Shown one piece after another: positions 6,832-56,904 of a stretch of 64,000 nucleotides of DNA. Within the stretch, counting starts at the first letter, position 1. Every line of letters starts with the position of its first letter. Both the position numbers and the translations under genes were made by a program. The stretch lies in assembly GCF_056712565.1 (NCBI RefSeq), contig NZ_CM160072.1; one strand, written 5' to 3'. Below the pieces are notes generated by a model that saw nothing but the letters and a program-made list of their open reading frames with translations, was not told the origin of the DNA and searched no databases.

Positions 6832-6916
6832 GCCGAAGTGGCGAAATCGGTAGACGCAGTTGATTCAAAATCAACCGTAGAAATACGTGCCGGTTCGAGT
6901 CCGGCCTTCGGCACCA
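6832..6916 (+). tRNA. leuX: tRNA-Leu (anticodon CAA), 85 nt with encoded CCA end
   Basis: GCCGAAGTGGCGAAATCGGTAGACGCAGTTGATTCAAAATCAACC...GGTTCGAGTCCGGCCTTCGGCACCA: class II tRNA with long variable arm, anticodon loop TTCAAAA. Confidence 0.95.
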
Positions 6917-14483: not shown

Positions 14484-15701
14484 ATGGCAACAGCATGGTA
14501 TAAACAAGTTAATCCACCACAACGGAAAGCTCTTTTTTCCGCATGGCTTGGATATGTATTTGATGGCTTTGATTTTATGATGATATTTTACATTCTTCAT
14601 ATTATAAAAGCAGATCTTGGCATTACGGATATTCAGGCTACTTTAATAGGGACAGTGGCCTTCATAGCCAGACCTATTGGAGGTGGTTTTTTTGGTGCCA
14701 TGGCTGATAAATATGGTCGTAAGCCAATGATGATGTGGGCAATTTTCATTTACTCAGTCGGAACAGGCCTTAGCGGTATTGCTACAAACTTATATATGCT
14801 CGCAGTTTGCCGTTTTATTGTTGGCTTAGGGATGTCTGGTGAATATGCATGTGCTTCAACTTATGCGGTAGAAAGTTGGCCTAAAAATCTTCAATCTAAA
14901 GCTAGTGCTTTTTTGGTAAGTGGTTTTTCTGTTGGAAATATTATTGCGGCACAAATAATCCCTCAGTTTGCTGAAGTATATGGATGGAGAAACTCTTTTT
15001 TTATAGGCCTGTTACCAGTTTTACTAGTTCTTTGGATCAGAAAAAGTGCTCCAGAAAGTCAGGAGTGGATTGAAGATAAATATAAGGATAAATCAACATT
15101 TTTGTCTGTCTTCAGAAAACCACATCTTTCAATCTCTATGATCGTTTTCCTCGTCTGTTTTTGTCTATTTGGTGCAAACTGGCCGATAAACGGACTACTT
15201 CCTTCCTACCTGGCAGATAATGGAGTTAATACAGTGGTCATTTCAACTCTGATGACAATAGCAGGTTTAGGAACACTGACAGGTACAATATTTTTTGGTT
15301 TTGTTGGTGATAAGATTGGTGTAAAAAAAGCCTTTGTAGTCGGTCTAATAACTTCATTTATTTTCCTTTGTCCTCTTTTTTTTATTTCTGTGAAAAACTC
15401 TTCTCTTATAGGATTATGTCTCTTTGGATTAATGTTTACAAATTTAGGTATTGCAGGGTTGGTTCCAAAATTTATATATGATTACTTTCCAACAAAATTA
15501 AGAGGATTAGGGACCGGTCTTATTTATAACTTAGGGGCAACTGGAGGAATGGCCGCACCTGTATTAGCTACATACATTTCAGGATATTATGGCTTAGGTG
15601 TTTCATTATTCATTGTTACGGTTGCATTCTCTGCCTTATTAATTTTGTTAGTTGGTTTTGATATTCCAGGTAAAATTTATAAACTATCCGTGGCTAAATG
15701 A
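14484..15701 (+). CDS. yjhB: MFS transporter, NanT-like (sialic acid-related)
   Basis: ORF 14424..15701; start set at MATAWYKQVNPPQRKALF (405 aa); 12-TM MFS protein. Confidence 0.8.
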   Translation: MATAWYKQVNPPQRKALFSAWLGYVFDGFDFMMIFYILHIIKADLGITDIQATLIGTVAFIARPIGGGFFGAMADKYGRKPMMMWAIFIYSVGTGLSGIATNLYMLAVCRFIVGLGMSGEYACASTYAVESWPKNLQSKASAFLVSGFSVGNIIAAQIIPQFAEVYGWRNSFFIGLLPVLLVLWIRKSAPESQEWIEDKYKDKSTFLSVFRKPHLSISMIVFLVCFCLFGANWPINGLLPSYLADNGVNTVVISTLMTIAGLGTLTGTIFFGFVGDKIGVKKAFVVGLITSFIFLCPLFFISVKNSSLIGLCLFGLMFTNLGIAGLVPKFIYDYFPTKLRGLGTGLIYNLGATGGMAAPVLATYISGYYGLGVSLFIVTVAFSALLILLVGFDIPGKIYKLSVAK

Positions 15702-15712
15702 TTGGAGGCTTT

Positions 15713-16831
15713 ATGATTAATTATGGCGTTGTTGGTGTTGGATACTTTGGCGCTGAATTAGCTCGTTTTATGAATATGCATGATAATGCAAAAATTACAT
15801 GTGTATACGATCCTGAAAATGGAGAAAATATTGCCCGTGAATTGCAGTGTATCAATATGTCAAGCTTGGATGCTTTAGTCTCAAGTAAATTAGTCGATTG
15901 CGTGATCGTAGCCACCCCAAATTATCTGCATAAAGAACCAGTAATTAAAGCAGCAAAGAATAAGAAGCATGTTTTTTGTGAAAAACCAATTGCATTAAGT
16001 TATGAAGATTGTGTGGATATGGTCAAAGCGTGTAAAGAAGCTGGTGTGACCTTTATGGCCGGGCATATTATGAATTTTTTCAATGGGGTTCAATATGCAC
16101 GGAAGTTAATTAAAGAAGGTGTTATCGGCGAAATATTATCATGTCATACTAAGAGAAATGGCTGGGAAAACAAACAAGAGAGACTTTCCTGGAAAAAGAT
16201 GAAAGAACAATCTGGTGGACATCTATATCATCATATACATGAGTTAGATTGTGTTCAGCATTTACTTGGAGAAATACCAGAGACGGTTACTATGATTGGT
16301 GGAAATTTGGCCCATTCTGGTCCAGGATTTGGCAATGAAGATGATATGTTATTTATGACCTTGGAATTCCCGTCAGGAAAACTAGCAACCTTAGAGTGGG
16401 GGAGTGCATTTAACTGGCCGGAACATTATGTCATCATCAATGGAACTAAAGGCTCTATTAAAATTGATATGCAAGAAACAGCAGGGTCACTTAGGATTGG
16501 CGGTCAGACAAAGCATTTTTTGGTCCATGAAACACAAGAAGAAGATGATGATCGTCGGAAAGGCAATATGACCTCAGAAATGGATGGCGCTATAGCATAT
16601 GGTCATCCAGGAAAAAAAACACCATTATGGCTTGCCAGTTTAATAAGAAAGGAGACGTTATTCCTCCATAATATCCTCTGTGGTGCAAAACCTGAAGAAG
16701 ATTATATTGACCTTCTCAATGGTGAGGCGGCCATGTCGGCGATTGCTACTGCTGATGCTGCCACTCTTTCAAGATCGCAGGACAGGAAAGTGAAAATCAG
16801 TGAGATCATTAAACATACATCAGTAATGTAA
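15713..16831 (+). CDS. yjhC: Gfo/Idh/MocA-family NAD-binding oxidoreductase
   Basis: ORF 15698..16831; start set at MINYGVVGVGYFG (Rossmann motif), 372 aa; 4-bp overlap with yjhB suggests an operon. Confidence 0.8.
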   Translation: MINYGVVGVGYFGAELARFMNMHDNAKITCVYDPENGENIARELQCINMSSLDALVSSKLVDCVIVATPNYLHKEPVIKAAKNKKHVFCEKPIALSYEDCVDMVKACKEAGVTFMAGHIMNFFNGVQYARKLIKEGVIGEILSCHTKRNGWENKQERLSWKKMKEQSGGHLYHHIHELDCVQHLLGEIPETVTMIGGNLAHSGPGFGNEDDMLFMTLEFPSGKLATLEWGSAFNWPEHYVIINGTKGSIKIDMQETAGSLRIGGQTKHFLVHETQEEDDDRRKGNMTSEMDGAIAYGHPGKKTPLWLASLIRKETLFLHNILCGAKPEEDYIDLLNGEAAMSAIATADAATLSRSQDRKVKISEIIKHTSVM

Positions 16832-42645: not shown

Positions 42646-45600
42646 ATGAAACGACATCTGAACACCAGCTACAGGCTGGTATGGAATCACATTACGGGCA
42701 CCCTGGTGGTGGCCTCCGAACTGGCCCGCTCACGGGGAAAACGCGCTGGTGTGGCGGTTGCGCTGTCTCTTGCTGCTGTCACATCAGTCCCGGCACTGGC
42801 TGCTGACAAGGTTGTACAGGCGGGAGAAACCGTGAACGACGGAACACTGACAAATCATGACAACCAGATTGTCCTCGGTACGGCCAACGGAATGACCATC
42901 AGTACCGGTCTGGAGTATGGGCCGGATAACGAGGCCAATACCGGCGGACAATGGATACAAAATGGCGGTATCGCCAACAACACTACTGTCACCGGTGGTG
43001 GTCTTCAGAGAGTGAATGCCGGAGGAAGCGTTTCAGACACGGTTATCAGTGCCGGAGGCGGACAGAGCCTTCAGGGGCAGGCAGTGAACACCACTCTGAA
43101 CGGCGGTGAGCAGTGGGTACATGAAGGCGGGATTGCAACGGGTACCGTCATTAATGAGAAGGGCTGGCAGGCCATCAAATCCGGCGCAGTGGCAACCGAC
43201 ACGGTTGTGAATACCGGCGCGGAAGGGGGACCGGATGCGGAAAATGGTGATACCGGGCAGACCGTCTACGGAGATGCCGTACGCACCACCATCAATAAAA
43301 ATGGTCGTCAGATTGTGGCTGCTGAAGGAACGGCAAATACCACTGTGGTTTATGCCGGCGGCGACCAGACTGTACATGGTCACGCACTGGATACCACGCT
43401 GAATGGGGGGTACCAGTATGTGCACAACGGCGGTACGGCGTCTGGCACTGTTGTAAACAGTGACGGCTGGCAGATTGTCAAAAACGGGGGTGTGGCCGGG
43501 AATACCACCGTTAATCAGAAGGGCAGACTGCAGGTGGACGCCGGTGGTACAGCCACGAATGTCACCCTGAAGCAGGGCGGCGCACTGGTTACCAGTACGG
43601 CTGCAACCGTTACCGGCATAAACCGCCTGGGAGCATTCTCTGTTGTGGAGGGTAAAGCTGATAATGTCGTACTGGAAAATGGCGGACGCCTGGATGTGCT
43701 GACCGGACACACAGCCACTAATACCCGCGTGGATGATGGCGGAACGCTGGATGTCCGCAACGGTGGCACCGCCACCACCGTATCCATGGGAAATGGCGGT
43801 GTACTGCTGGCCGATTCCGGTGCCGCTGTCAGTGGTACCCGGAGCGACGGAAAGGCATTCAGTATCGGAGGCGGTCAGGCGGATGCCCTGATGCTGGAAA
43901 AAGGCAGTTCATTCACGCTGAACGCCGGTGATACGGCCACGGATACCACGGTAAATGGCGGACTGTTCACCGCCAGGGGCGGCACACTGGCGGGCACCAC
44001 CACGCTGAATAACGGCGCCATACTTACCCTTTCCGGGAAGACGGTGAACAACGATACCCTGACCATCCGTGAAGGCGATGCACTCCTGCAGGGAGGCTCT
44101 CTCACCGGTAACGGCAGCGTGGAAAAATCAGGAAGTGGCACACTCACTGTCAGCAACACCACACTCACCCAGAAAGCCGTCAACCTGAATGAAGGCACGC
44201 TGACGCTGAACGACAGTACCGTCACCACGGATGTCATTGCTCAGCGCGGTACAGCCCTGAAGCTGACCGGCAGCACTGTGCTGAACGGTGCCATTGACCC
44301 CACGAATGTCACTCTCGCCTCTGGTGCCACCTGGAATATTCCCGATAACGCCACGGTGCAGTCGGTGGTGGATGACCTCAGCCATGCTGGACAGATTCAT
44401 TTCACCTCCACCCGCACAGGGAAGTTCGTACCGGCAACCCTGAAAGTGAAAAACCTGAACGGACAGAATGGCACCATCAGCCTGCGTGTACGCCCGGATA
44501 TGGCACAGAACAATGCTGACAGACTGGTCATTGACGGTGGCAGGGCAACTGGAAAAACCATCCTGAACCTGGTGAACGCCGGCAACAGTGCGTCGGGGCT
44601 GGCGACCAGCGGTAAGGGTATTCAGGTGGTGGAAGCCATTAACGGTGCCACCACGGAGGAAGGGGCCTTTATCCAGGGGAATAAGCTGCAGGCCGGTGCC
44701 TTTAACTACTCCCTCAACCGGGACAGTGATGAGAGCTGGTATCTGCGCAGTGAAAATGCTTATCGTGCTGAAGTCCCCCTGTATACATCCATGCTGACAC
44801 AGGCAATGGACTATGACCGGATTCTGGCAGGCTCCCGCAGCCATCAGACCGGTGTAAACGGTGAAAATAACAGCGTCCGTCTCAGCATTCAGGGCGGTCA
44901 TCTCGGTCACGATAACAACGGCGGTATTGCCCGTGGAGCCACGCCGGAAAGCAGCGGCAGTTATGGCTTCGTCCGTCTGGAGGGTGACCTGCTGAGAACA
45001 GAGGTTGCCGGTATGTCTCTGACGACAGGGGTGTATGGTGCCGCAGGCCATTCTTCCGTTGATGTTAAGGATGATGACGGTTCCCGCGCCGGCACGGTCC
45101 GGGATGATGCCGGCAGTCTGGGCGGATACCTGAATCTGGTACACACGTCCTCCGGCCTGTGGGCTGACATTGTGGCACAGGGAACCCGCCACAGCATGAA
45201 AGCATCATCGGACAATAACGACTTCCGCGCCCGGGGCTGGGGCTGGCTGGGCTCACTGGAAACCGGTCTGCCCTTCAGTATCACTGACAATCTGATGCTG
45301 GAGCCACAACTGCAGTACACCTGGCAGGGACTCTCCCTGGATGACGGCCAGGATAACGCCGGTTATGTGAAGTTCGGGCATGGCAGTGCACAACATGTGC
45401 GTGCCGGCTTCCGTCTGGGCAGCCACAACGATATGAACTTTGGTAAAGGCACCTCATCCCGTGACACCCTGCGCGACAGTGCCAAACACAGTGTGCGTGA
45501 ATTGCCGGTGAACTGGTGGGTACAGCCTTCTGTTATCCGCACTTTCAGCTCCCGGGGTGACATGAGCATGGGTACAGCCGCCGCCGGCAGTAACATGACG

Positions 45601-45765
45601 TTCTCACCGTCCCGGAATGGCACGTCACTGGACCTGCAGGCCGGACTGGAAGCCCGTGTCCGGGAAAATATCACCCTGGGCGTTCAGGCCGGTTATGCCC
45701 ACAGCGTCAGCGGCAGCAGCGCTGAAGGTTATAACGGTCAGGCCACGCTGAATGTGACTTTTTGA
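42646..45765 (+). CDS. flu: Antigen 43 self-associating autotransporter adhesin
   Basis: ORF 42571..45765; start [52 protein letters not shown] (extended autotransporter signal peptide); repetitive Gly/Thr/Asn beta-helix passenger; C-terminal beta-barrel ending …GQATLNVTF. Confidence 0.9.
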
Positions 45766-48720: not shown

Positions 48721-49089
48721 GTGTCAGACACACTTTCCGGGACAACGCATCCCGATGACAATGACGACCATCCCTGGTGGGGACTACCCTGCACAGTGAC
48801 GCCCTGTTTCGGCGCCCGTCTGGTGCAGGAGGGTAACCGGTTGCATTACCTTGCCGACCGTGCCGGTATCAGAGGCCGGTTCAGAGATGCGGATGCGTAC
48901 CCTCTGGACCAGGCCTTTCCGCTGCTGATGAAACAACTGAAATTAATGCTCACCAGTGGTGAACTGAATCCCCGCCATCAGCATACCGTGACACTGTATG
49001 CGAAGGGGCTGACCTGTGAAGCCGACACCCTCGGCTCCTGTGGTTACGTTTATCTGGCTGTTTATCCGACACCTGAAACGAAAAAGTAA
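48721..49089 (+). CDS. cbeA: CbeA/YeeU-family antitoxin, GTG start
   Basis: VSDTLSGTTHPDDNDDHPWWGLPCTVTPCFGARLVQEGNRLHYLADRAGIRG…TPETKK, 122 aa, matches the CbeA family along its length. Confidence 0.75.
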   Translation: MSDTLSGTTHPDDNDDHPWWGLPCTVTPCFGARLVQEGNRLHYLADRAGIRGRFRDADAYPLDQAFPLLMKQLKLMLTSGELNPRHQHTVTLYAKGLTCEADTLGSCGYVYLAVYPTPETKK

Positions 49090-49178
49090 ACCACCAGAAT
49101 AACCTTCTGCTCCGGCCTGGTGTTTTCACCACGCCACTGTCCCATTTTTTATCTCTGCATATCAGGAAAATCTTCAGT

Positions 49179-49409
49179 ATGAAAACATTACCCGACACGC
49201 ATGTACGGGAGGTATCGTGCTGCCCGTCTCCAGTCACCATCTGGCAGACACTGCTCACCCGGTTACTGGACCAGCATTCCCTGATTTCCTCATCGATATC
49301 GAATAAGCACTCGTCGCAGAATTCTTTATCGAGTGAGAGCCTCTGTTCAAGGACGCTTCTTTTTTTTGTTGCAACGTGCACATCCCTTCATCTTTCCGCG
49401 CCTTTGTGA
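49179..49409 (+). pseudogene. cbtA: Truncated CbtA/YeeV-family toxin gene (only about the first 33 codons are toxin-like)
   Basis: MKTLPDTHVREVSCCPSPVTIWQTLLTRLLDQH matches the CbtA/YkfI/YpjF N-terminus; from about 49278 the frame reads unrelated low-complexity sequence. Confidence 0.7.
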
Positions 49410-49546
49410 CCTCGTGATTTGGGGTACATGGAAAATGGGCGTAGCAAGCCTCAGCTAGATAACTAACCGTAATAAAAGGGCTTTTCTGCGAGCAATGTAA
49501 GAGAAGGATAACTAGGCAGGTTGCAAGAAAGATAATCGTTTTGATA

Positions 49547-49581
49547 GATCAGTTTATCGATATTGATCGTTAGTGCCGATC
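49547..49581 (+). promoter_or_regulatory. Second GATC triplet resembling the Ag43 Dam/OxyR switch, about 450 bp upstream of mtnK
   Basis: GATC at 49547, 49565, 49578 (spacing 18 and 13 bp versus 19 and 13 in the flu switch); shared GATCGTTA-N5-GATCG core. Confidence 0.35.
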
Positions 49582-49930
49582 GATAAGAAGTGCGGAAACG
49601 TTAGACTCACCTCTGTTGCTCCATCATGATGATGGGGCTGTTGGCCCTCGAATCTATCTGTCTATTAGCATCGGCATGACAAACACCATTTGTTTCCACA
49701 ACAAAAGACAATAGAAAAGTACATATGTACAAAAAGTGTGATTTATTCTGTCACTTCAGTACTTCCTTTCGCCTAAGTTTGCCCGTAATAATTCCCCGTG
49801 CAGTACTATTGTTGCGACATAACAACATGAATTACATGGTAATAATAGATGTTTTCCTCTGCTGATTCCTGTAAGGATCATGACTCCATACGACATCATT
49901 TTTAATTTTATACAGTTCAAAAAATCTACA

Positions 49931-49980
49931 TGTGTCACAAATAATTTTACATTTGATAATGTATAGTTGTCACATGACAA
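49931..49980 (+). promoter_or_regulatory. Operator-like palindromes TGTGTCACA and TTGTCACATGACAA in the mtnK promoter region
   Basis: Two palindromic sites sharing a TGTCACA core, 37-86 bp upstream of the mtnK ATG, near a GATAAT -10-like hexamer. Confidence 0.3.
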
Positions 49981-50016
49981 GTTGATTATCATTCTGTGTA
50001 GACAAGGAGAACTGTT

Positions 50017-51276
50017 ATGACGGATTCAATTCCATCAGGTTACAAGCCGCTGACATGTGACACGCTGCCGGGTTATCTCTCGTCCAGACTGACCCCTTCA
50101 TGCGAACCGGGAGGGTTACCTGAAGAGTGGAAAGTTTCAGAAGTGGGGGACGGAAACCTGAACATGGTGTTTATCGTTGAGGGGACACATAAAACCATCA
50201 TTGTAAAACAAGCTCTGCCCTGGCTTCGTGCCGGGGGCGAAGGATGGCCTTTATCTCTGAGCCGTGCGGGCTTTGAGTACAACGTCTTATGTCAGGAAGC
50301 CAAGTACGCGGGTCACACACTGATTCCGCAGGTCTATTTTTACGACCCGGAAATGGCGCTGTTTGCCATGGAGTATCTGACTCCTCACGTGATTCTGCGT
50401 AAGGAACTGATTAACGGTAAAAAATTCCCTAAACTAGCTGAAGATATCGGCAGATTTTTAGCACAGACTCTCTTCAATACGTCTGACATTGGCATGTCAG
50501 CAGAACAGAAAAAAGCGCTTACTGCCGAGTTCGCGTTGAATCATGAGCTGTGCAAAATTACGGAAGATCTGATCTTCACAGAGCCCTATTACAACGCTGA
50601 ACGGAATAACTGGACTTCTCCTGAGCTGGACGATGCCGTCCATAAGGCCTGGGCTGATGTAGAGATGATCCAGGTTGCCATGCGTTATAAGTACAAATTT
50701 ATGACAGAAGCGCAGGCATTGTTACATGGCGACCTTCATTCAGGCTCAATCATGGTGACCGACACGGATACCAAAGTGATTGATCCGGAGTTCGGTTTCA
50801 TGGGGCCAATGGCGTTTGATATCGGCAACTATATTGGCAACCTCCTGCTGGCGTACTTCTCACGCCCTGGGTGGGATGCGAATGAGCAACGTCGCGCTGA
50901 CTATCAGGAATGGCTGCTTCAGCAGATTGTCCAAACCTGGTCCGTTTTCACCCGGGAGTTCCGCCAGCTCTGGGACAACAAAACACAGGGCGACGCGTGG
51001 TCGACAGAAATGTATCAACAGAACAGGGCCGCTCTTGAGGACGCACAGGATCAGTTTTTTGCCACGCTGCTTGAAGATTCCCTGGTGAATGCCGGCATGG
51101 AAATGAATCGCCGGATCATTGGTTTTGCTGGCGTTGCCGAGCTGAAACAGATTGAAAATACAGAGCTTCGCGCAGGATGTGAACGACGTGCATTGACCAT
51201 GGCGCGCGATCTTATCGTCAATGCCCGCCAGTTTAAAAATATGGATTCCGTCATCCAGTCTGCGAAGGTTAAGTAA
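50017..51276 (+). CDS. mtnK: 5-methylthioribose kinase-like kinase
   Basis: 419 aa; phosphotransferase fold with HGDLHSGSIMV catalytic motif; first gene of a four-gene co-directional cluster. Confidence 0.8.
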   Translation: MTDSIPSGYKPLTCDTLPGYLSSRLTPSCEPGGLPEEWKVSEVGDGNLNMVFIVEGTHKTIIVKQALPWLRAGGEGWPLSLSRAGFEYNVLCQEAKYAGHTLIPQVYFYDPEMALFAMEYLTPHVILRKELINGKKFPKLAEDIGRFLAQTLFNTSDIGMSAEQKKALTAEFALNHELCKITEDLIFTEPYYNAERNNWTSPELDDAVHKAWADVEMIQVAMRYKYKFMTEAQALLHGDLHSGSIMVTDTDTKVIDPEFGFMGPMAFDIGNYIGNLLLAYFSRPGWDANEQRRADYQEWLLQQIVQTWSVFTREFRQLWDNKTQGDAWSTEMYQQNRAALEDAQDQFFATLLEDSLVNAGMEMNRRIIGFAGVAELKQIENTELRAGCERRALTMARDLIVNARQFKNMDSVIQSAKVK

Positions 51277-51285
51277 GAGGTCATT

Positions 51286-52401
51286 ATGAATATTAAAGGT
51301 AAACACTATCGTACGGTCTGGGTTTCCGGGGATGGAAAAGCGGTAGAAATCATCGATCAGACTAAGTTGCCTTTTAAGTTCGAGGTGGTGGCGCTTACCT
51401 CTGCGGAAATGGCCGCTACGGCTATTCAGGATATGTGGGTTCGTGGCGCTCCGCTTATTGGTGTCGTTGCAGCCTATGGCATCGCGCTGGGAATGAATCA
51501 CGATGCCAGTGACATGGGTCTGCAGCGTTACTATGACCTTCTTATCAAAACCCGACCAACGGCAATTAATCTCAAATGGGCCCTCGACAGGATGATAGAC
51601 ACACTGAAGGATCTCTGTGTATCAGAGCGCAAGGATGTGGCCTGGGCGCTGGCGGCAGAAATTGCCGAGGAAGATGTCGCGTTGTGTGAACAAATTGGAT
51701 TACATGGTGCAGAAGTCATCCGCGAAATAGCCCAGAAAAAACCGGCCGGGAGTGTGGTCAATATCCTGACACATTGTAACGCAGGCTGGCTGGCGACTGT
51801 AGACTGGGGAACCGCGCTTTCTCCCATCTACAAAGCGCATGAAAACGGAATCCCTGTTCACGTCTGGGTGGATGAAACGCGGCCACGTAATCAGGGCGGA
51901 CTCACGGCATTTGAACTGGGCTCACACGGTATTCCTCACACCCTGATCGCCGACAACGCGGGTGGCCACCTGATGCAACACGGTGACGTTGATCTCTGCA
52001 TTGTTGGGACCGATCGAACCACGGCCAGAGGGGATGTCTGTAATAAAATTGGTACCTATCTTAAGGCGCTGGCGGCCCATGATAACCATGTTCCCTTCTA
52101 CGTCGCGTTACCTTCTCCCACTATTGACTGGACTATCGAGGACGGAAAAAGCATTCCGATTGAGCAACGTGACGGAAAAGAGCAGTCCCATGTCTATGGG
52201 ATAAACCCTCAGGGAGAATTGAGCTGGGTCAATACCGCCCCTGAAGGAACCCGTTGTGGGAACTACGCTTTCGACGTCACGCCTGCCCGATACATTACCG
52301 GCTTCATTACTGAGCGGGGAGTCTGTGCTGCCAGTAAGTCAGCGCTGGCGGATATGTTTGCTGACCTGAAGAGTAAAGCACTCCAGGGGGAACAGCATTA
52401 A
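51286..52401 (+). CDS. mtnA: 5-methylthioribose-1-phosphate isomerase (eIF-2B alpha/beta/delta-like family)
   Basis: 371 aa; …[15 protein letters not shown]… and …[10 protein letters not shown]… typical of this isomerase family. Confidence 0.8.
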
Positions 52402-52431
52402 AACAGCGGCCATTGCTATTAAGGATCAGGA

Positions 52432-53073
52432 ATGGAACGGATTAAGTTAGCAGAAAAAATCATTTCCACTTGTCGGGAAATGAATGCGTCAGGTCTTAAT
52501 CAAGGAACATCAGGTAATGTGAGTGCCAGGTATACCGGTGGCATGTTGATTACGCCGAGTGGGATCGCTTATTCAAAGATGACGCCGGACATGATTGTCT
52601 TTGTAGACGATAAGGGAAAACCTGAAGCGGGTAAAATACCATCAAGTGAATGGTTAATTCATCTGGCGTGTTATAAAGCCAGACCAGAATTGAATGCTGT
52701 CATACATACGCATGCGGTGAATTCCACGGCGGTGGCAATACATAATCATTCAATTCCGGCCATTCATTATATGGTGGCGGTATCGGGGACGGATCATATT
52801 CCCTGTATTCCCTATTATACCTTTGGCAGTCCTGAACTGGCCGACGGTGTATCTAAAGGAATCAGAGAAAGTAAGTCCTTGCTGATGCAGCACCACGGTA
52901 TGCTGGCCATGGACGTCACGCTGGAAAAGACGTTGTGGCTGGCGGGTGAAACCGAGACGCTGGCTGATTTATACATCAAATGTGGCGGATTACATCACGA
53001 TGTTCCCGTGCTGTCTGAAGCCGAAATGACCATCGTCCTTGAAAAATTCAAAACGTATGGTTTGAAAGCGTAA
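52432..53073 (+). CDS. Class II aldolase/adducin-family protein (probable 5-methylthioribulose-1-phosphate / 5-deoxyribulose-1-phosphate aldolase)
   Basis: 213 aa; zinc-ligand motifs VIHTHAVNS and HHGMLA; no dehydratase-pathway genes downstream. Confidence 0.75.
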   Translation: MERIKLAEKIISTCREMNASGLNQGTSGNVSARYTGGMLITPSGIAYSKMTPDMIVFVDDKGKPEAGKIPSSEWLIHLACYKARPELNAVIHTHAVNSTAVAIHNHSIPAIHYMVAVSGTDHIPCIPYYTFGSPELADGVSKGIRESKSLLMQHHGMLAMDVTLEKTLWLAGETETLADLYIKCGGLHHDVPVLSEAEMTIVLEKFKTYGLKA

Positions 53074-53176
53074 TTACAGCTTTATTTTAATTAATAACAT
53101 ATGACAGCCATTCGCAGAATGGCTGCTATTCCCTCTGTCCACAACGATTGATTATAACTACCACAAGGAGTTATTT

Positions 53177-54181
53177 ATGTTTATCGTGGAATCGTATGCT
53201 GTCGCCATAATAATGTGTTTTATTACCATGATTTGCTGGGGTTCATGGGCGAATACAACTAAACTTGTCAGCAATAAAAAATGGGAGTTCCCTCTATTCT
53301 ATTGGGATTATTCAATTGGATTATTGCTGTGTTCTTTGTTATTTGCCTTCACGCTGGGTTCTATGGGCGAAGCCGGTCGCAGTTTTATACCTGATATTCA
53401 GCAGGCGAGCAGCAGTAGTCTGATGTCGGCAATACTGGCAGGGATTATCTTCAATATTTCCAATATTCTTCTGGTCGCTTCTATTAATCTTGCCGGTATG
53501 GCGGTAGCTTTTCCTGTGGGTGTGGGGCTGGCACTGGCTCTGGGTGTGATCACCACCTATATCGGCAATCCGCAGGGCGATCCGCTCATTCTGTTCCTCG
53601 GTGTCGTCTGCGTTGTGATCGCCATTATTTTTACCGCGATAGCCTATGGTCGTGTCACGCAGGAGGCGGATAAATCTCGCCGTAATAAAGGTCTCATTAC
53701 TGCCATTCTGGCGGGTATCATCATGGGATGGTTTTTCCGCTTCCTGGCGGACTCCATGTCTGACAATTTCAGCCAGCCTGCCAGCGGTCTGATGACGCCT
53801 TACTCAGCACTTGTTCTGTTTGCCGTGGGGCTGTTTTTGTCGAACTTTGTCCTTAACAGGCTGGTCATGAAAAAACCTATTTCAGGAGAACCGGTCAACG
53901 GGAAAATGTATTTTTCCGGGAGTTTACGGGATCATGTTTGCGGCTGGCTGGGCGGTATGATTTGGTGTGTCGGTCTGGCATTCAGTCTGATTGCGTCTGG
54001 TCAGGCGGGGTATGCCATTTCCTACGGTCTGGGACAGGGGGCCACAATGATTGCCGTGATCTGGGGAGTCTTCATCTGGAGAGAATTTGCCAGTGCGCCA
54101 GCCGGAACCAATAAACTGCTGCTGACCATGTTTATTTCATACATTGTGGGTATTGTTCTTATTATCGCCGCTAATCAATAA
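53177..54181 (+). CDS. DMT-superfamily sugar permease (GRP/RhaT-like), 10 predicted TM segments
   Basis: 334 aa, highly hydrophobic, two repeated 5-TM halves; last gene of the mtn cluster. Confidence 0.65.
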   Translation: MFIVESYAVAIIMCFITMICWGSWANTTKLVSNKKWEFPLFYWDYSIGLLLCSLLFAFTLGSMGEAGRSFIPDIQQASSSSLMSAILAGIIFNISNILLVASINLAGMAVAFPVGVGLALALGVITTYIGNPQGDPLILFLGVVCVVIAIIFTAIAYGRVTQEADKSRRNKGLITAILAGIIMGWFFRFLADSMSDNFSQPASGLMTPYSALVLFAVGLFLSNFVLNRLVMKKPISGEPVNGKMYFSGSLRDHVCGWLGGMIWCVGLAFSLIASGQAGYAISYGLGQGATMIAVIWGVFIWREFASAPAGTNKLLLTMFISYIVGIVLIIAANQ

Positions 54182-54185
54182 AATC

Positions 54186-54223
54186 CTGCCCCATATCTAC
54201 ATGGGGCAGTTGTTCATTCTTTT
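54186..54223. terminator. Bidirectional terminator-like hairpin between the permease gene and convergent yjhU
   Basis: CTGCCCCAT-ATCTAC-ATGGGGCAG followed by TTGTTCATTCTTTT. Confidence 0.5.
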
Positions 54224-55208
54224 AGTGTGGTAATTCACACGCCAGCAAAAACTCTGCCGTTCCTTCATCAACAATCAGGTCCGTGACATATCCTCCCAGC
54301 AGGGCACCCAACGTTGCGTCATAGCCTCTTTCCCCACCAGCAAGGAAGATCTTCCGTTCAATCTGCCTTAGCTGAGCCAGACTGATTCCCAGAATACGCT
54401 GGTCAACATCAGCCACGACGGGCATCCCTTCCTTGTCATAGAAGCGACCACAAATGACACCTACTGCGCCTAAATCCCGATACGTCTGCATTTCCTTCTT
54501 ATTCAGCACGCCCACCCGAATCAGGGGATTTTCATCAAGCGCGTTACCCACGACAAAAAAGGCTTTCGTACAGCGAGTCAGAACGTCAAAATTCGATCGA
54601 ATAATAGGCTCTGCCTGTAACTCCATGGCCAGTCTGGCGCTTGATACCACGGCGGGCACGTGCAGCGAGGCGACACGGCCTGAAAGCTTGTAGGCGATTT
54701 GCGATGAGGATTCAATGATCGTCAGGTCTGGCTGAGATGGCATGGAACCGAGCATCTGTATAACGGTGACATTTTTACATGACTTCGGCGTCATGGTTTT
54801 GCTCATCTGATGGATTGTTCTTCCCCAGGCAACCCCCAGCACATCACCATTCTCAATCACCTGATTCAGATACATGCCACCGGCACGTGAAAGGCGAGTC
54901 CGCATCAGCTTTGTATCATCACGTTTTCCGGCATGTTCGCCATCCGGCACGATGATCACTCTCTGGAGATTGAATTTATCGCGAATTTGCAAAGCAGCGT
55001 CGATAGAGCCAAAGACATTCACATCCAGGTTGATATGAACCAGTCCATTTTCCCGGGCTGTTTGCAGGTATTTGACAACCGTGACGCGGGACACCCCCAT
55101 GATAGCTGCAACTTCAGTCTGGCTTTTACCTTCCTGATAGTACAGCCATGTTGCATGAAGTACGGGATCATCATTGAACAGGCTGCTGTTTGTTTGATCT
55201 CTATCCAC
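54222..55208 (-). CDS. yjhU: SorC/DeoR-family sugar-binding transcriptional regulator
   Basis: 328 aa; HTH …SQTEVAAIMGVSRVTVVKYLQTAR…; SorC-type sugar-binding domain. Confidence 0.8.
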   Translation of the reverse strand: MDRDQTNSSLFNDDPVLHATWLYYQEGKSQTEVAAIMGVSRVTVVKYLQTARENGLVHINLDVNVFGSIDAALQIRDKFNLQRVIIVPDGEHAGKRDDTKLMRTRLSRAGGMYLNQVIENGDVLGVAWGRTIHQMSKTMTPKSCKNVTVIQMLGSMPSQPDLTIIESSSQIAYKLSGRVASLHVPAVVSSARLAMELQAEPIIRSNFDVLTRCTKAFFVVGNALDENPLIRVGVLNKKEMQTYRDLGAVGVICGRFYDKEGMPVVADVDQRILGISLAQLRQIERKIFLAGGERGYDATLGALLGGYVTDLIVDEGTAEFLLACELPH

Positions 55209-55554
55209 TTTTGTATACCTGTATTAAACCGGGGAAATGCTCATCTTAACCCTGTTTACCCGGAGAGTTGATGCAGATTGCCAGTGGCATGATTTTATAG
55301 AGATATTTTATTCTTTTACATGAAATAAACCAGCATACCATTTGAGCGATCGCCCGCTGTTCCCCCATACTGTAAAGCCGGAGACATGCTCCGGCTTTAC
55401 AGTATTACTGAGAATACACCCATCAAGCATAATCGAAGGTTCAATATCGCCCCTTTTTGATCGCCAGCGATTCGTCACAGTGCAGACGGTTGCCGTCACT
55501 CACTAAATTATGGGGGACAGTGAACAACAGGTTGGCTCACTGGCAAGAACCCGA

Positions 55555-56904
55555 TTATAAAACTAAGCTGGCGAGCAGAATAAAAATCAGCCCACTGATG
55601 GATAAGAGTGTGGACATCAGCGTCCAGGATAACAGCGTTTCTTTGGTGGTCAGGCCAAAAAAGTCTTTAATCATCCAGAAACTGGCATCGTTAACGTGAG
55701 AACAAATACAGGATCCGGCACCGGTAGCCAGCGTAATCAAGGCCAGGTTGGTATTGGGATGTACTGCCAACAATGGGATGACCAGACCGGCGGTAGAGAT
55801 CGCCGCGACGGTGGCTGAACCCAGACAAATACGCAGGAATGCGGCCACGCCCCAGGCCATCAGGATCGGGTTAATATCCATACCCGAAACCAGGGTGGAA
55901 ATATACTGACCAACGCCAGAGTCGATGAGAACTTGCTTGAATGCACCACCACCACCGATAATCAGCAGCAGACCGGCAATACCCGCGATAGCTTTTCCGC
56001 AAGAATCCATCAGGTCAGGGATTGTTTTCCCGCGCCCCAGGCCCATGGTATAGATCGCGAATAGCAGTGAAATCAGCATGGCGATCGTTGAATTACCTAA
56101 GAACAGTATCACGTTGTAAAATAAGCCTGAATCCGCGGCACTTTTGGCATGAGTCATCTGGATGATGGTGACAACCGCCATCAGGATCACCGGCAGCATT
56201 GCCGTGAGAAAACTGATCCCAAAGCCTGGCATTTCGCTTTCGCTGAATCGGCGGGTCGCGCCGAGAGAGGCTATATTCCCCTCTTTTTTAAAGGCGTCCG
56301 GAATAATGCGCTGGCAGAATTTATTCAATACCGGGCCGCAAAGAATAAAGGTTGGAATGCCGACAATGATACCGTATATCAGTACCAATCCTACATCAGC
56401 GCCATATTCCCTGGCGATAACAGTCGGGCCGGGGTGCGGCGGCAAAAAACCGTGTGCGACCAGCAAACCAGAAAGCATCGGCACACACATAAACATCGGT
56501 GATATTTTTGCTTCACGGGCAATAGCGAATAAAATAGGTACCAGAAGAATTAAACCGACTTCGAAAAAAAGTGCGATACCGACAATAAACGCCGAACAGA
56601 CCACTGCCCAGTCAAGTTTATTTTTCCCGAAATAATTCAGCATGGTCAGCGCTATTCGCTGCGCACCACCCGCATCGGCCAGCAAGCGACCGAGCATAAC
56701 ACCGAAGCCAAATATCAAACCAATATGGCCCAGCGTACCGCCAAGTCCGGATTCGACTGAGGTGACGACTTTACTCAAATCCATACCACTGGCGATGGCG
56801 ACAGCAATCGAGACAATAATTAACGAAACAAACGTATTAAGCTTAATTTTTATGGTTAAAAGCAGGAGTAAAGCAATCCCTGCCACAACGATAATTAGTG
56901 GCAT
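55555..56904 (-). CDS. yjhF: GntP-family permease
   Basis: 449 aa GntP-family transporter (paralogous to idnT); synteny with yjhGHI. Confidence 0.85.

Follow-up and report, generated by a model that had tools for sequence, protein, structure and literature searches.

The 64,000-nucleotide window analysed here (RefSeq assembly GCF_056712565.1, contig NZ_CM160072.1; positions count from its first letter) carries at 50017-54181 a four-gene operon consisting of mtnK, mtnA, ald2 and one permease gene, which is met by the convergent repressor gene yjhU (mtnR). These five genes form a module that is almost certainly the E. coli dihydroxyacetone phosphate (DHAP) shunt. The operon, the pathway and its regulation have already been published; the feature is real, and the first-pass annotation, made from the letters of the window, read it correctly. 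That annotation had mentioned a DHAP shunt described in extraintestinal pathogenic E. coli (ExPEC) and did not expect the pathway to be new, which is borne out by a single group's publications of 2020, 2024 (Huening et al., PMC10986504) and October 2025 (Huening et al., PMC12632272). The first description is credited to North et al. 2020 (Mol Microbiol 113:923) where it is cited as ref. 12 in PMC12632272.

The identification follows from near-identity with the characterised operon of strain ATCC 25922. The published 'DHAP shunt reference' (Dataset S2, PMC12632272) is 4,165 bp long, the exact span of 50017-54181, and the window is 99.5% identical to ATCC 25922 DNA over 6,960 nt. Relative to that strain, one residue differs in MtnK (P329S), two in MtnA (E49D, T142A), two in Ald2 (I63K, F76I) and three in the permease; YjhU is identical. 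Perfect matches to the primers used for cloning in the publications lie at window positions 50017-50039 and 53049-53073. Many genomes of ExPEC and of type strains, ATCC 11775 and S88 among them, contain a 5-kb operon query at 100% identity. In these genomes, RefSeq annotates the genes as mtnK, mtnA, 'L-fuculose-phosphate aldolase', 'GRP family sugar transporter' and yjhU. Some differences from ATCC 25922 weigh against the identification: of the two Ald2 substitutions, that at residue 76 lies three residues past the catalytic E73, and there are two promoter-proximal single nucleotide polymorphisms (49875 and 49907) in the proximal 255 bp.

In ATCC 25922, growth on 5-deoxyribose, 5'-deoxyadenosine and 5'-methylthioadenosine (MTA) depends on mtnK-mtnA-ald2, and these three genes on pK2 are sufficient for K-12 growth (PMC10986504). 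The end products are DHAP and acetaldehyde or 2-methylthioacetaldehyde; in this strain the pathway is no significant route of sulfur salvage or detoxification (PMC10986504). The claim that the pathway ends at the aldolase and yields DHAP plus an aldehyde thus matches the products published for a near-identical operon. The three enzyme genes, together with one for a 'putative permease', are co-transcribed as one operon, and all are induced by approximately 7.5 log2-fold on 5-deoxyribose (PMC12632272).

According to the literature on ATCC 25922, 5-deoxyribose or 5-methylthioribose (MTR) is taken up directly, or the Pfs nucleosidase frees the pentose from 5'-deoxyadenosine or MTA. In that strain the pentose is then phosphorylated at C1 by MtnK and isomerised by MtnA to the 1-phospho-ribulose form; Ald2 splits 5-deoxyribulose-1-phosphate or methylthioribulose-1-phosphate into DHAP and the corresponding aldehyde. 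The outcome is carbon and energy for growth, not methionine recycling. At the main promoter, MtnR represses transcription until substrate is present and cAMP-CRP activates it upon glucose exhaustion. The operon gives ExPEC access to carbon from the 5'-deoxynucleoside by-products of S-adenosylmethionine, which commensal K-12-type strains excrete as waste; this, too, is already published. The pathway is not mentioned in PMC13001218, which deals with the metabolic capacities of ExPEC lineages.

The list of open reading frames (ORFs) places mtnK at 50017-51276 (419 aa), mtnA at 51286-52401 (371 aa), ald2 at 52432-53073 (213 aa) and the permease gene at 53177-54181 (334 aa), all on the plus strand; successive gaps are 9, 30 and 103 nt. 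These coordinates are identical to those behind the earlier description of four co-directional genes with short gaps. On the minus strand, yjhU (54222-55208, 328 aa) converges with the operon. A terminator scan finds a bidirectional terminator-like hairpin of 9-10 pairs at 54186-54209, on both strands, between the permease gene and yjhU; it is kept without change in K-12. Between ald2 and the permease gene, the 103-nt gap holds a further hairpin with a 10-bp stem (53104-53126), which the scan reports on the minus strand. Published read depth is comparable over all four operon genes (PMC12632272).

Protein families were assigned with NCBIfam profile models that have curated equivalog cut-offs. 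The mtnK product passes the MtnK equivalog TIGR01767 (522.5 bits, cut-off 275) and contains the HGDLH motif at residues 237-241. Its PDB matches 2pyw and 2olc are both MTR kinases, with which the GDGNLN, HGDLH and DPE motifs align; the ribosome-binding site of the gene is AAGGAG at 50004-50009. The mtnA product passes both TIGR00512 (411 bits, cut-off 279) and NF004326 (463.2 bits, cut-off 271). The two proteins had been described as MTR-kinase-like and MTR-1-phosphate-isomerase-like, and the profiles place them accordingly; in the same comparison, neither kinase nor isomerase groups with fuculose or rhamnulose enzymes; such a grouping is what the first-pass annotation had named as the result that would overturn its reading.

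The ald2 gene starts 30 nt past the end of mtnA, and its product takes the place of the MtnB dehydratase beside the kinase and isomerase. Ald2 conserves every one of the FucA zinc ligands (H92, H94 and H155), together with the catalytic E73 and residues Y113, F131 and Y209. The product also passes the 'L-fuculose-phosphate aldolase' subfamily model PRK08087 (365.6 bits, cut-off 264), so that the class II aldolase with an HxH zinc motif proposed earlier is upheld. By sequence, Ald2 is a FucA paralogue and a predicted Zn-dependent class II aldolase. Among its structure matches, E. coli FucA (E 8e-81) is far closer than 6btd and 6btg (E 8e-33). The latter two we take to be structures of DrdA from Bacillus thuringiensis; the PDB entry name is merely fuculose phosphate aldolase. 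At residues 63 and 76, the window allele reads K and I, against I and F in the ATCC 25922 enzyme; FucA likewise has F76. This allele is common to ATCC 11775, S88 and many ExPEC genomes.

The fourth gene is the only one in the operon without an assigned function; it is described in the literature as a 'putative permease', function unknown (PMC12632272), and in the literature searched a single paper treats it together with the pathway. The first-pass annotation suggested that the permease and the regulation might be new. For the permease this still stands; for the regulation it does not, as MtnR and CRP control are both published (PMC12632272). Pfam detects Ureide_permease (PF07168) over both halves of the protein, at residues 42-158 (1e-9) and 171-331 (3e-9), together with a Sugar_transport match (PF06800, 5e-6). 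The hydropathy profile has approximately ten hydrophobic segments, nine clear and one weaker. On these grounds the protein is assigned to the drug/metabolite transporter (DMT) superfamily, as had been proposed. It fails the GRP GlcU/RbsU model TIGR00776 (34.6 bits, cut-off 319.6), a weak RhaT/GlcU match being all that is found; the RefSeq label is nevertheless 'GRP family sugar transporter'. A PDB search finds no related solved structure at E<=1.

More than 8,000 homologues of the permease were retrieved, many of them about 60% identical and spread over distant phyla. Homologues at 58-72% identity were examined in Aeromonas, Salmonella, one Bacteroidota genome, one KSB1 genome and two metagenome contigs; a PfkB ribokinase-like kinase adjoins every one, and often an inosine-uridine nucleoside hydrolase or ADP-ribosylglycohydrolase does so too. 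These neighbours indicate ribofuranose-type or nucleoside substrates. Import of 5-deoxyribose or MTR is therefore a candidate function, and would be the most economical role for a permease that belongs to the module. Weighing against such a role, K-12 with mtnK-mtnA-ald2 alone grows on 5 mM 5-deoxyribose (PMC10986504), and the primer matches place the permease gene outside the complementing plasmid. Another uptake route must therefore exist; since it suffices at 5 mM, the contribution of the permease would likely lie in affinity at low concentration.

It is tentatively proposed, with confidence slightly short of even, that the permease represents an uncharacterised DMT branch for ribofuranose-type substrates, that it is a high-affinity importer of 5-deoxyribose and MTR (or of nucleosides), and that its homologues are ribose or nucleoside importers. 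If this is true, the permease would matter at the micromolar substrate levels found in urine, and the approximately 60% identical homologues of Bacteroidota, KSB1, Elusimicrobiota, Aeromonas and Salmonella would feed the adjoining kinases and nucleoside hydrolases. Assignment of a function to a member of this large conserved transporter group would annotate thousands of genes. Natural permease knock-outs are available: in the clinical isolates NZ_CP145622.1 and NZ_CP049852.1, mtnK-mtnA-ald2 are intact and the permease gene is interrupted at window position ~53911 by an insertion sequence (IS), which is either ISEc23, of the IS66 family, or a member of the IS3 family. In a third genome, truncation occurs at this same position.

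Other explanations concern either the pathway or the permease. The cluster could be the front of canonical methionine salvage, with the main function of recycling MTA sulfur to methionine; MtnK and MtnA are bona fide members of their families, and PMC10986504 cites the R. rubrum DHAP shunt as one that does supply sulfur salvage. The genes required downstream are lacking from the cluster, as the first-pass annotation remarked for the dehydratase-enolase-phosphatase and the dioxygenase. No MtnB, MtnC or MtnD homologue is found in or near the cluster in the ORF list and window annotation, and no mtnB, mtnC, mtnD or equivalent is annotated in colinear records spanning window 1-63400; E. coli in general is described as being without the downstream methionine-salvage genes (PMC10986504). 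The aldolase is also far below the MtnB dehydratase cut-off (68.5 versus 137.05 bits), and labelling in ATCC 25922 reveals accumulation of sulfur as 2-methylthioethanol with no significant recycling (PMC10986504). Methionine salvage is largely refuted and is considered very improbable. Slightly more remote still is the reading of the aldolase as a second FucA, in a cluster for L-fucose or another 6-deoxyhexose or pentose rather than for 5-deoxypentoses. Ald2 is 58.5% identical to E. coli FucA, passes PRK08087 and is named accordingly by RefSeq ('L-fuculose-phosphate aldolase'). However, it scores below the cut-off of the fucA equivalog TIGR01086 (317.6 versus 400.25 bits) and its operon partners are MtnK and MtnA, not FucK and FucI; in addition, the promoter is induced by 5-deoxyribose and not by fucose, rhamnose, arabinose or N-acetylneuraminate (PMC12632272).

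With respect to the permease, inward transport of nucleosides (5'-deoxyadenosine, MTA) instead of free 5-deoxypentoses is unlikely, although several observations are in its favour. In Pfam the protein matches best the ureide permeases, carriers of heterocyclic nitrogen compounds; the Salmonella and Bacteroidota homologues adjoin inosine-uridine nucleoside hydrolases as well as ribokinase-like kinases; and ATCC 25922 grows on both nucleosides (PMC10986504). On the other hand, the inducing substrate demonstrated so far is the free sugar (PMC12632272), permease-less K-12 carrying mtnK-mtnA-ald2 also uses 5'-deoxyadenosine (PMC10986504), and the most constant neighbour of the homologues is the PfkB sugar kinase, which points to a pentose. 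Somewhat less likely again is that the permease exports products such as 2-methylthioethanol or aldehydes, or has no role in the pathway. This would fit with its dispensability in K-12 on 5 mM 5-deoxyribose (PMC10986504), with the isolates that have a disrupted permease gene beside intact enzyme genes, and with the fact that many DMT proteins are exporters. It fits poorly with the 84-87% identity kept inside the module across genera, with co-induction with the enzymes, and with the placement of distant homologues in clusters of catabolic kinases and hydrolases, as is typical of uptake systems; alcohol and aldehyde products of such small size are, moreover, expected to cross membranes unaided. 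Import of the free 5-deoxypentose, relevant at micromolar concentrations, thus remains the role tentatively preferred for the permease.

The regulator gene yjhU has been renamed mtnR; its product represses the main operon promoter, and deletion of yjhU derepresses it by approximately 5 log2 (PMC12632272). In YjhU, Pfam identifies a sugar-binding domain (Sugar-bind, PF04198) at residues 64-323 (1.1e-79) and helix-turn-helix (HTH) matches at residues 21-57. Neither PF08220 (HTH_DeoR) nor PF00455 (DeoRC) is among the Pfam matches. Since PF04198 covers the full length, YjhU is classified as a SorC-family regulator, not as a member of the E. coli DeoR/GlpR family. The nearest NCBIfam models are Bacillus-type DeoR (210.6 versus 420) and LsrR (108.9 versus 486), both below cut-off. 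By analogy with related repressors, the effector of YjhU is probably a phosphorylated pathway intermediate.

The same five genes occur together outside E. coli. Orthologues of the permease that are 84-88% identical occur in Klebsiella oxytoca and Providencia rettgeri and on two metagenome contigs. Each of these loci has the arrangement mtnK, mtnA, aldolase gene, permease gene and convergent PF04198 regulator, and the flanks are unrelated each time; the module is therefore kept in five different genomic contexts. As yjhU occupies the same place in other genera, it is part of the module and not a neighbouring core gene. The functional unit, judged from this conservation, has five genes, with yjhU/mtnR travelling with the operon. 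YjhU is the best conserved of the proteins (93% identity in K. oxytoca and 89% in P. rettgeri), followed by the permease (87% and 84%) and the enzymes (78-85%). At the DNA level, cross-genus homology extends from ~49916 to 55214, that is, from the proximal promoter through the yjhU start codon. In K. oxytoca, a gene for an iron-type alcohol dehydrogenase lies directly upstream of mtnK on the same strand (segment 2282-3382); its product is a candidate reductase for the aldehyde products.

Upstream of mtnK lie a distal non-coding leader (49278-49920, plus strand), which is part of the published '799-bp 5'-untranslated region', and a promoter/operator core (49921-49980, plus strand), which is the published P1 region. 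Within E. coli the distal leader accompanies the operon, and it matches the published Dataset S3 sequences; in K. oxytoca and P. rettgeri its sequence is not conserved. A weak constitutive promoter, P2, has been placed in it, approximately 188-218 bp upstream of mtnK (PMC12632272); the text of that paper has a distance of 188 bp, one of its figure legends 218 bp. When 49000-55700 is searched against Rfam at E<=1, no structured RNA or riboswitch is matched. The possibility that the leader is a decayed copy of the K. oxytoca iron-alcohol-dehydrogenase gene was rejected, as tblastn against the window gives no match. A 78-aa ORF on the minus strand (49756-49992) covers the promoter; it is unannotated in the matching records examined and is probably spurious. 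Short overlapping ORFs of this kind were rejected as genes since they have no annotation support in those records.

Published lacZ fusions locate the promoter 66-126 bp upstream of mtnK, and two transcription start sites are reported for the operon (PMC12632272). CRP binds the promoter in an electrophoretic mobility shift assay, and a crp deletion mutant fails to grow on 5-deoxyribose (PMC12632272). In an alignment of the five loci, conservation is limited to 49921-49980 plus the ribosome-binding site. The core contains an invariant TCACA (49935-49939), a conserved TATnnT (49962-49967) and three CAnnTG-type boxes with centres at 49931.5, 49952.5 and 49972.5, which gives a phasing of 20-21 nt. 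SorC-family repressors have repeated operators. By analogy, the phased boxes are proposed as a candidate MtnR operator array, to which MtnR would bind. Two observations speak against this arrangement: the conserved TATnnT, which would predict a start near 49974, disagrees with the published P1 start (72 bp upstream of mtnK, window 49945), and the semi-palindrome put forward as a candidate in the literature (49938-49955) shows no conservation from genus to genus. The MtnR operator model is for these reasons a prediction only. The published start and CRP positions could not be matched to consensus hexamers or to the cross-genus footprint.

K-12 lacks most of the operon, and the manner of its loss can be read from the junction. 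In the window, an IS1 copy (32037-32804, plus strand) lies beside ykiE/fecI; it is the same copy as K-12 IS1F, and its right end is the left deletion breakpoint. The fetched K-12 segment 22000-25240 corresponds to window 29564-32804, from fecA to the right end of IS1F (99.75% identity), while K-12 25241-27000 corresponds to window 54124-55883 (99.83%) and begins directly past the IS1F end. K-12 therefore lacks the 21,319 bp between 32805 and 54123, which contain Ag43, the CP4-type module, mtnK, mtnA, ald2 and, from the 1,005-nt permease gene, the first 947 nt. K-12 retains the final 58 nt of that gene together with the hairpin and yjhU. As a permease stump that abuts an IS1 end is the signature of an IS1-associated deletion, the sequence supports well the reading of the K-12 state as such a deletion and not as an empty site. 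The event could have been an adjacent deletion, or it could have involved recombination with another copy of IS1. The earlier statement that K-12 has IS1 directly beside yjhU is correct, IS1F being found there. The polarity of the event is opposite to that assumed: the cluster was not inserted relative to K-12; rather, K-12 has deleted 21.3 kb and kept a stump.

The loss in K-12 would have removed the operator together with the operon. It is well supported that the K-12 yjhU is an orphan repressor gene left behind by the IS1 deletion. When YjhU was analysed by ChIP-exo in K-12 MG1655, no binding peaks were obtained, and the authors proposed that the protein was inactive in the growth condition used (PMC6237786). 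The deletion suggests another explanation, as the cognate promoter lies within the deleted segment and the operator is lost. A long-standing K-12 y-gene is thereby accounted for: yjhU is a module-borne regulator, orphaned in K-12.

The distribution of the module was surveyed in 5,426 complete E. coli genomes. Of these, 1,601 (29.5%) carry yjhU, and a sensitive blastn search gives the same count; the published statement that mtnR is widespread across E. coli (PMC12632272) is qualified by this figure. Some part of the operon body is found in 1,239 genomes and at least 80% of the operon in 1,078. The exact K-12 junction between IS1 and the permease stump occurs in 356 genomes. As 1,239 and 356 add up to 1,595, compared to 1,601 with yjhU, nearly every genome that has yjhU without the operon carries the K-12 allele. 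Among the junction carriers, the three listed are 4.58-4.60 Mb in genome size, and two of them are labelled as a 'conjugation assay' or 'laboratory developed' strain. All other partial operons are truncated from the island side and retain the yjhU end. The K-12 deletion, the five-gene module and the SorC assignment are modest refinements of the published picture.

The operon occupies the distal end of the leuX island. The tRNA-Leu(CAA) gene leuX is at 6832-6916, and the order in the window is idn genes, leuX, integrase, nanXY, fec operon, IS1, Ag43, CP4-type module and operon; the window is colinear with E. coli HS13-1. In the CP4-type module, genes for DUF932, an antirestriction protein, RadC/JAB and DUF987 are accompanied by that for the YeeU antitoxin and by a cut-off cbtA. 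The truncated cbtA (49179-49277) marks its end and the mtn leader starts next. The cluster is thus bordered by this truncated gene on the left and by convergent yjhU on the right, which agrees with its earlier placement between a degraded CP4-type module and yjhU. Other genes of the island are nanXY (14484-16831), for 2,7-anhydro-N-acetylneuraminate uptake and a hydratase, the ferric-citrate (fec) operon (24255-31800) and the gene for the Ag43 autotransporter adhesin (42646-45765). Numerous IS remnants and pseudogenes are also present, one of which is a phosphoethanolamine transferase pseudogene.

The closest known system is the operon of ATCC 25922, which agrees in its four genes, its 4,165-bp span, the convergent yjhU/mtnR and its position where the leuX island ends. 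The two strains differ at the left flank: upstream of 49277, the window has the truncated cbtA while ATCC 25922 has a glycosyltransferase fragment and remnants of McrB and a restriction endonuclease. Homology begins at 49277/49278, exactly at the end of the truncated cbtA; since the flanks differ upstream of this point, the left border of the module is a recombination hotspot.

Among single components, Ald2 and FucA (PDB 1FUA) belong to the same fold family and have zinc and catalytic residues in common; they are set apart by moderate identity, the sub-equivalog score, the operon partners and the inducer. YjhU has the PF04198 sugar-binding domain of the SorC-family repressors B. subtilis DeoR, CggR and E. 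coli LsrR, and is below the equivalog cut-offs of both Bacillus DeoR and LsrR. It is not a member of the E. coli DeoR/GlpR/FucR family, with which an analogy is drawn in PMC12632272.

At the level of the pathway, DrdK-DrdI-DrdA of B. thuringiensis (PMC6079011) follows the same logic of kinase, isomerase and class II aldolase. Some 5-deoxyribose disposal clusters carry predicted sugar transporter genes, which suggests salvage of exogenous 5-deoxyribose (Beaudoin et al. 2018, PMC6079011). The enterobacterial module differs from the B. thuringiensis system in having its own specific regulator and DMT-type permease. The DHAP shunts of Rhodospirillum rubrum and Rhodopseudomonas palustris have the same enzymes and products as that of E. 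coli. In those bacteria the shunt is used for sulfur salvage, with constitutive expression at a low level; in E. coli, by contrast, it is an inducible, catabolite-repressed pathway of carbon catabolism (PMC12632272).

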